Shown piece by piece: positions 305 to 520 of a stretch of 5,320 nt of DNA (the stretch's first letter is position 1; every line of letters starts with the position of its first letter). The notes beneath the pieces were generated by a model that searched no databases, was not told where the DNA came from, and saw only the letters and a list, made by a program, of their open reading frames with translations. The DNA comes from a virus (Duplodnaviria; Heunggongvirae; Uroviricota; Caudoviricetes), in IMG/VR virus record IMGVR_UViG_2690316345_000006, positions 1 through 5,320 of that record; one strand, written 5' to 3'. Position numbers and translations under genes: made by a program.

Positions 305-412
305 ATGTTAAATACACAGAAAACCATTAATGCGGAAAAATATAACGAAGGAAATTTTCTGAGCAGATTTTTAAAATTACTGGCGACGAGAATGCGGCAA
401 AAAATGAATTAG
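305..412 (+). CDS. Small hypothetical ORF (35 aa), probably the front half of a frameshifted ~68-aa gene
   Basis: ATG 305 sits 7 nt after GGAGGT; reads MLNTQKTINAEKYNEGNFLSRFLKLLATRMRQKMN and stops at TAG 410-412 just after an A6 run (399-404); a start-less open frame continues to TAA 508-510. Confidence 0.4.
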   Translation: MLNTQKTINAEKYNEGNFLSRFLKLLATRMRQKMN

Positions 413-520
413 AGCCGTGGACACCTGAAGGAGTCGAACCAAATTATTGCTGGTGGGATGTTGATCCAGTTGATGCTGCAAATGAAGCTATGAGTTATCA
501 CAACGATTAATGTCAGGAGG

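Follow-up and report, generated by a model that had tools for sequence, protein, structure and literature searches.

The locus and its prophage setting

The window, by which we mean the whole stretch of viral DNA that was analysed (5,320 nucleotides, positions 1 to 5,320 of IMG/VR record IMGVR_UViG_2690316345_000006), corresponds, in a lambdoid prophage, to the early-right and nin-like region. Around the small locus that is the subject of this report, it contains the following features.

1-126, minus strand: an inverted IS1 element, of which the window includes the left end (window positions 1-140 match annotated transposases of the IS1 family in thousands of copies, with a median of 10 per genome)
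127-254, plus strand: what IS1 has left of a 118-aa prophage gene of unknown function, namely its 3′ end, which aligns with positions 82-121 of the 134-position PHROG 1621 profile (E = 1.5e-13)
546-1379: gene for a 277-aa hypothetical protein
1669-1839, plus strand: sok RNA (Rfam, 105.9 bits)
1837-1992, plus strand: hok toxin, a 51-aa protein of the Hok/Gef family
2215-2388: Rem
2436-3888: DUF1367, YbcO and the DUF1133/Q antiterminator
4028-4103 and 4204-4280, plus strand: tRNA-Met(CAT) and tRNA-Arg(TCT), just 3′ of the Q antiterminator gene
4378-4881: TerB-like protein, 3′ of the tRNAs
5050-5242, plus strand: STnc100 sRNA (Rfam, 145.8 bits)
5243-5304, minus strand: AgvB, the anti-GcvB sRNA (Rfam, 96.5 bits)

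Together, sok and hok constitute a complete type I toxin-antitoxin module, and the STnc100 and AgvB RNAs, on opposite strands, abut at the window's right end. The mechanical list of open reading frames gives a 224-aa ORF at 3214-3888, in which the match to the DUF1133/Q family begins at an internal ATG at 3334; this ATG overlaps the YbcO stop codon (ATGA), and the interval 3334-3888 is consistent with related contigs, in which a 184-aa gene is called.

The locus itself occupies positions 305-510. An earlier sequence-only reading had described it as a 35-codon ORF with a strong Shine-Dalgarno sequence, a run of six adenosines and a second, overlapping frame that is open for 54 codons and lacks a start codon, and all of these features are present as described. 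The first of the two frames (hereafter ORF1, 305-412) specifies the 35-aa product MLNTQKTINAEKYNEGNFLSRFLKLLATRMRQKMN and ends at a TAG at 410-412, just beyond the A6 run at 399-404. The second frame, which is -1 relative to ORF1, is closed upstream by a TAA at 343-345, remains open through 54 codons at 346-507 and terminates at a TAA at 508-510. It contains no ATG, GTG or TTG until near its own end, and it does not appear in the list of open reading frames.

A seven-base deletion in a 70-codon gene

Both frames match the same protein family, PHROG 4659, which belongs to lambdoid and Stx-type prophages and whose profile comprises 70 positions and is annotated as 'unknown function'. ORF1 aligns with profile positions 1-16 (E = 1e-4) and the second frame with positions 18-70 (E = 3.2e-39), while a repaired 70-aa sequence aligns over positions 1-70 with an E-value of 2e-49. 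As DNA, the locus is a member of this family, but the uninterrupted ORF of approximately 70 codons that characterizes the family is missing from it, the reading frame being broken.

The nature of the break is apparent from comparison with prophage DNA of E. coli. Of 5426 complete E. coli genomes, 1210 contain prophage DNA that matches window positions 230-560, with full-length matches that are 5-7 bases longer than the query; for strain 08-00022 and O157:H7 EDL933, the annotation places one 213-bp CDS here, encoding a 70-aa hypothetical protein. In a three-way alignment of these two sequences with the window, the sole gap consists of seven bases that are absent from the window between AACGA and AGGAAA, and the A6 run and its flanks show no difference among the three. 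Three further intact loci, from viral contigs (L005, L008 and L010), agree with the gene in the window at 206 of 206 bases once the heptamer GTGGGTG is taken out of them, and the exact intact protein that they specify is found on 831 contigs. GTGGGTG can be placed in only one way, the bases on either side of it differ, and no microhomology for slipped mispairing was found at the deletion. Read against the intact gene, the locus is composed as follows.

293-297, plus strand: Shine-Dalgarno sequence GGAGG, 7 nt 5′ of the ATG at 305, recognized from the sequence and kept in homologues
305-348, plus strand: native codons 1-14 of the 70-codon gene, followed by bases 1 and 2 of codon 15, from alignment with intact homologues (ORF1 matches the profile at positions 1-16 only)
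between 348 and 349, plus strand: deletion junction at which GTGGGTG is missing, comprising the third base of codon 15 and codons 16 (Trp) and 17 (Val), from alignment and the 206-base match
349-412, plus strand: out-of-frame tail of ORF1, consisting of the last A of a fortuitous GAA (Glu) codon, then GNFLSRFLKLLATRMRQKMN and the TAG at 410-412; residues 16-33 have no similarity to the family, and this reading is not native protein sequence
349-510, plus strand: codons 18-70 (RKFSEQ...SYHND) and TAA in the native frame, with no start codon, from the match to profile positions 18-70
399-404, plus strand: A6 run, read in the native frame as part of Ala34 (GCA, 397-399), Lys35 (AAA, 400-402) and Asn36 (AAT, 403-405), and of wild-type length in intact and deletion loci alike

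The 70-codon ORF is carried by all 82 related loci (80 on viral contigs and two in E. coli), a count that overstates the rarity of disruption because the 80 viral loci were picked by best tblastn match, which favors intact copies; other singleton frameshift alleles are known in the family. Throughout the 82 loci, the region of codons 13-20 reads TATAACGAGTGG(GTG/GCA/ATG/GTA)A.., these codons being always TATAACGAGTGGnnnA.., with codon 17 mostly GTG or GCA. The intact copies in EDL933 (WP_000935420.1) and 08-00022 (WP_047088922.1) have the same start codon and Shine-Dalgarno sequence as the copy in the window, some intact alleles are 100% identical to it apart from the deletion, and all share a genomic slot that lies 3′ of the DUF977/118-aa genes and 5′ of the 277-aa or DUF4014 genes. 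What distinguishes the window copy is that it is 7 bp short, and that the 70-aa protein cannot be made from it.

The intact gene is a real coding gene under purifying selection, as judged from a dN/dS of ~0.19 over 21 distinct DNA alleles, among which variable sites number 10, 13 and 21 at the first, second and third codon positions, respectively. The family is an orphan restricted to Escherichia/Shigella prophages and forms 120 protein clusters at ≥74% identity, most of them exactly 70 aa long. No Pfam family matched the intact protein, a profile search of 1.84 billion representatives returned only 12 hits, mostly fragments together with three distant small proteins, and a literature search on the EDL933 accession found no record. 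The three distant relatives (P0138, P0140 and P0147; 61-93 aa) carry a C-terminal DPV(D/G)AA(N/D)xxLS(H/Y)Y motif and, upstream of it, a W/Y-containing helix. This motif, retained in these relatives, is the best-conserved portion of a family that is in other respects an orphan. An AlphaFold model of moderate confidence (pLDDT 77.5) depicts a small three-helix protein with helices at residues 2-28, 31-38 and 57-66, for which Foldseek searches of BFVD and PDB gave no significant match (best E-values 0.9 and 1.9). In this model, the deletion lies midway along helix 1.

These observations support the conclusion, to which we assign a probability of about 95%, that the locus at 305-510 is a frameshift pseudogene of a 70-codon lambdoid-prophage gene of PHROG 4659, from which a single mutational event removed GTGGGTG between positions 348 and 349. 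The indel is not a multiple of three, it leads to a premature stop at TAG 410-412 with no restart downstream, and the orthologues are intact, single-frame genes under purifying selection (82 loci, dN/dS ~0.19). Function of the product has probably been lost. Events of this kind are already known, and the locus is an ordinary prophage pseudogene: as in the frameshift pseudogenes of other decaying or cryptic E. coli prophages, a small indel has produced a premature stop in an accessory gene, an IS element lies in the adjacent gene, and nothing about the case is distinctive. An annotation of this locus should describe it as a pseudogene of a 70-aa prophage gene, frameshifted at the 348/349 junction, and not as a gene for 35 aa, as phase-variable or as the product of a sequencing error in a homopolymer.

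Translation of the deletion allele

Ribosomes would be expected to initiate at the intact Shine-Dalgarno sequence and ATG and to translate 14 native codons, followed by a fortuitous GAA that spans the junction and specifies Glu, as does the native GAG. Twenty out-of-frame codons would then be read before termination at the TAG at 410-412. The remaining 53 native codons (349-507), lying in the -1 frame with no start codon, would go untranslated.

Two related proposals would nonetheless grant the allele an active product. One is that the deletion allele is not dead, either because low-level -1 slippage of tRNA-Lys yields a 68-aa chimera that keeps the C-terminal motif (NYCWW...DPVDAANEAMSY), or because the 35-aa peptide has itself gained a function. 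If this were true, the slippage product or a functional 35-aa peptide might explain the persistence of the allele in its lineage; we nevertheless consider it very unlikely. The other, which we judge to be highly improbable, holds that -1 ribosomal frameshifting on the A run by a slip of tRNA-Lys (A_AAA_A), whether programmed or fortuitous, generates a chimeric 68-aa protein with the conserved C-terminal half and thereby provides partial rescue. In keeping with such a proposal, the second frame is indeed -1 relative to ORF1, and the AAA at 401-403 is preceded by an A, such that a single-tRNA slip is chemically possible.

The remaining features of the locus argue against frameshifting. Family members are single-frame genes, and the two-frame layout is both rare and derived, so no recoding signal could have been selected. 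The codons of the ORF1 frame at the run are CAA-AAA-ATG, and thus no tandem slippery heptamer of the form X_XXY_YYZ is in phase. The 76 nt of RNA downstream (405-480) are less structured than shuffled controls (z = +1.75), and the upstream stimulator resembling a Shine-Dalgarno sequence is absent. In addition, the protein made in this way would be predicted, from the structural model, to have a scrambled helix 1 (residues 16-33). Programmed -1 frameshifting typified by dnaX (A_AAA_AAG) has in common with the window an A-rich run and the -1 relation of the frames, whereas the window lacks an in-phase tandem slippery heptamer, a stimulatory structure and the Shine-Dalgarno element, and its two-frame layout is not conserved. 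Meaningful rescue of the pseudogene by frameshifting is therefore improbable.

The A6 run and recurrence of the deletion

The sequence-only reading had attributed the split to the A6 run, where a mutation, slippage in a phase-variable tract or a homopolymer sequencing error would have removed a single A. That one small gene has been split by a frameshift is borne out, as both halves are real coding sequence and the homologues run uninterrupted through 70 aa. The assigned site is not, as the frame is broken at the 348/349 junction. It is correct that ORF1 stops 6 nt past the run and that, at the level of sequence, one extra A would join the frames into a 68-aa fusion. Such a fusion, however, would resemble the family in just two segments, residues 1-15 and 34-68, separated by 18 out-of-frame residues (16-33) that match no homologue. 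A lack of homologous support for the fused product is one of the outcomes that the sequence-only reading had itself named as refuting its proposal.

The tract itself is of wild-type length. Among 81 tabulated intact loci, 76 have A6 and the other five AAAAAG, and the intact homologues read the run in frame as GCA-AAA-AAT (Ala34-Lys35-Asn36) in a single-frame arrangement; A6 is likewise present in all ten of the deletion-allele loci that were fetched. A synthetic A7 query with the flanks of the window had no exact match in the 228 matching records from complete E. coli genomes, its best match (65/66) being to A6. The run therefore has its ancestral length and is a bystander, 51 nt 3′ of the true frame break; it is found near the end of ORF1 only because reading in the wrong frame happens to encounter a stop codon 6 nt beyond it. 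More generally, the site of a frameshift cannot be read from a homopolymer that happens to lie toward the end of a truncated ORF. The better clue to the lesion was the point at which the second frame becomes open, in this instance 3 nt before the 348/349 junction.

Rare alleles with A-tract indels do occur elsewhere in the family, and could be taken to favor instability of the tract. In L102:301-510 (GCA_041363795.1), the run is shortened from A6 to A4 and a T5 run to T4, a net change of -3 that yields a 69-aa product with a scrambled middle, and both L103:301-495 (Logan ERR4623202) and the protein P0137 have A5; P0141 is a further one of the rare singleton alleles with homopolymer indels. Each is known from one contig, as against at least 1000 contigs for the common intact alleles, and we regard these singletons as background mutation or sequencing noise rather than phase variation. 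Typical contingency tracts are longer than six As. The likeness of the present locus to homopolymer contingency loci extends only to the short A run situated shortly before the stop of the truncated ORF, whereas its tract is wild-type, only 6 nt long, invariant in length among relatives (intact and deleted alleles alike being A6) and not the site of the frameshift. Loss of an A from this run, by any of the three routes, is accordingly an explanation that retains scarcely any probability.

By comparison, the seven-base deletion recurs. The exact 35-aa product of ORF1 is encoded on 21 indexed contigs, which derive from three NCBI assemblies and from independent Logan run assemblies, and the junction is identical in all ten of the deletion loci fetched from among these contigs. 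Of the ten, three lie in NCBI assemblies (GCA_002971055.1, GCA_001286305.1 and GCA_017117965.1) and seven in Logan assemblies of sequencing runs (SRR32729849, SRR6181326, SRR28283485, SRR21525070, SRR15361475, SRR23873551 and SRR14865351). One contig bearing the deletion allele was seen in 13 samples, and databases list the product, described as an uncharacterised E. coli protein, under at least four accessions. Because the deletion recurs identically in independent assemblies, homopolymer sequencing error and phase variation do not account for it. The allele is absent from the 5426 complete E. coli genomes, in which all 95 full-length matches contain the additional seven bases, and the lineage that carries it is thus documented solely by draft assemblies and contigs from read sets. 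A 32-mer spanning the junction had zero matches in a one-genome-per-species set, a result that is uninformative given that the set contains only a few E. coli genomes. On the basis of these sequence comparisons, the deletion allele is real and is inherited within one E. coli prophage lineage. That it is an artefact of assembly or sequencing, with the gene intact in the organism, has a negligible probability, for nothing specific favors this beyond the allele's absence from complete genomes, while the same junction in ten of ten loci, the deposition of the product under several accessions and the non-repetitive sequence in which the 7 bp were lost, which is atypical of platform error, all speak against it.

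The relationship of the deletion to the adjacent IS1 element can also be discerned. The 118-aa gene that is truncated in the window is intact upstream of the locus in L083, L084 and L001. Three public assemblies (L083, L084 and L085) carry the deletion prophage without IS1, being 100% identical to the window over positions 126-3412 and diverging from it exactly at the end of the element. The deletion therefore predates the insertion of IS1. A small deletion followed by insertion of IS1 into the neighboring gene represents two steps of ordinary prophage decay, and the locus provides one more example of the stepwise course of this process. In three other deletion loci (L086, L090 and L092), the ungapped match to the window ends 71 nt upstream of the ATG, and the upstream gene encodes 119 aa rather than 118; given these upstream differences, the deletion allele resides on at least two slightly different haplotypes.
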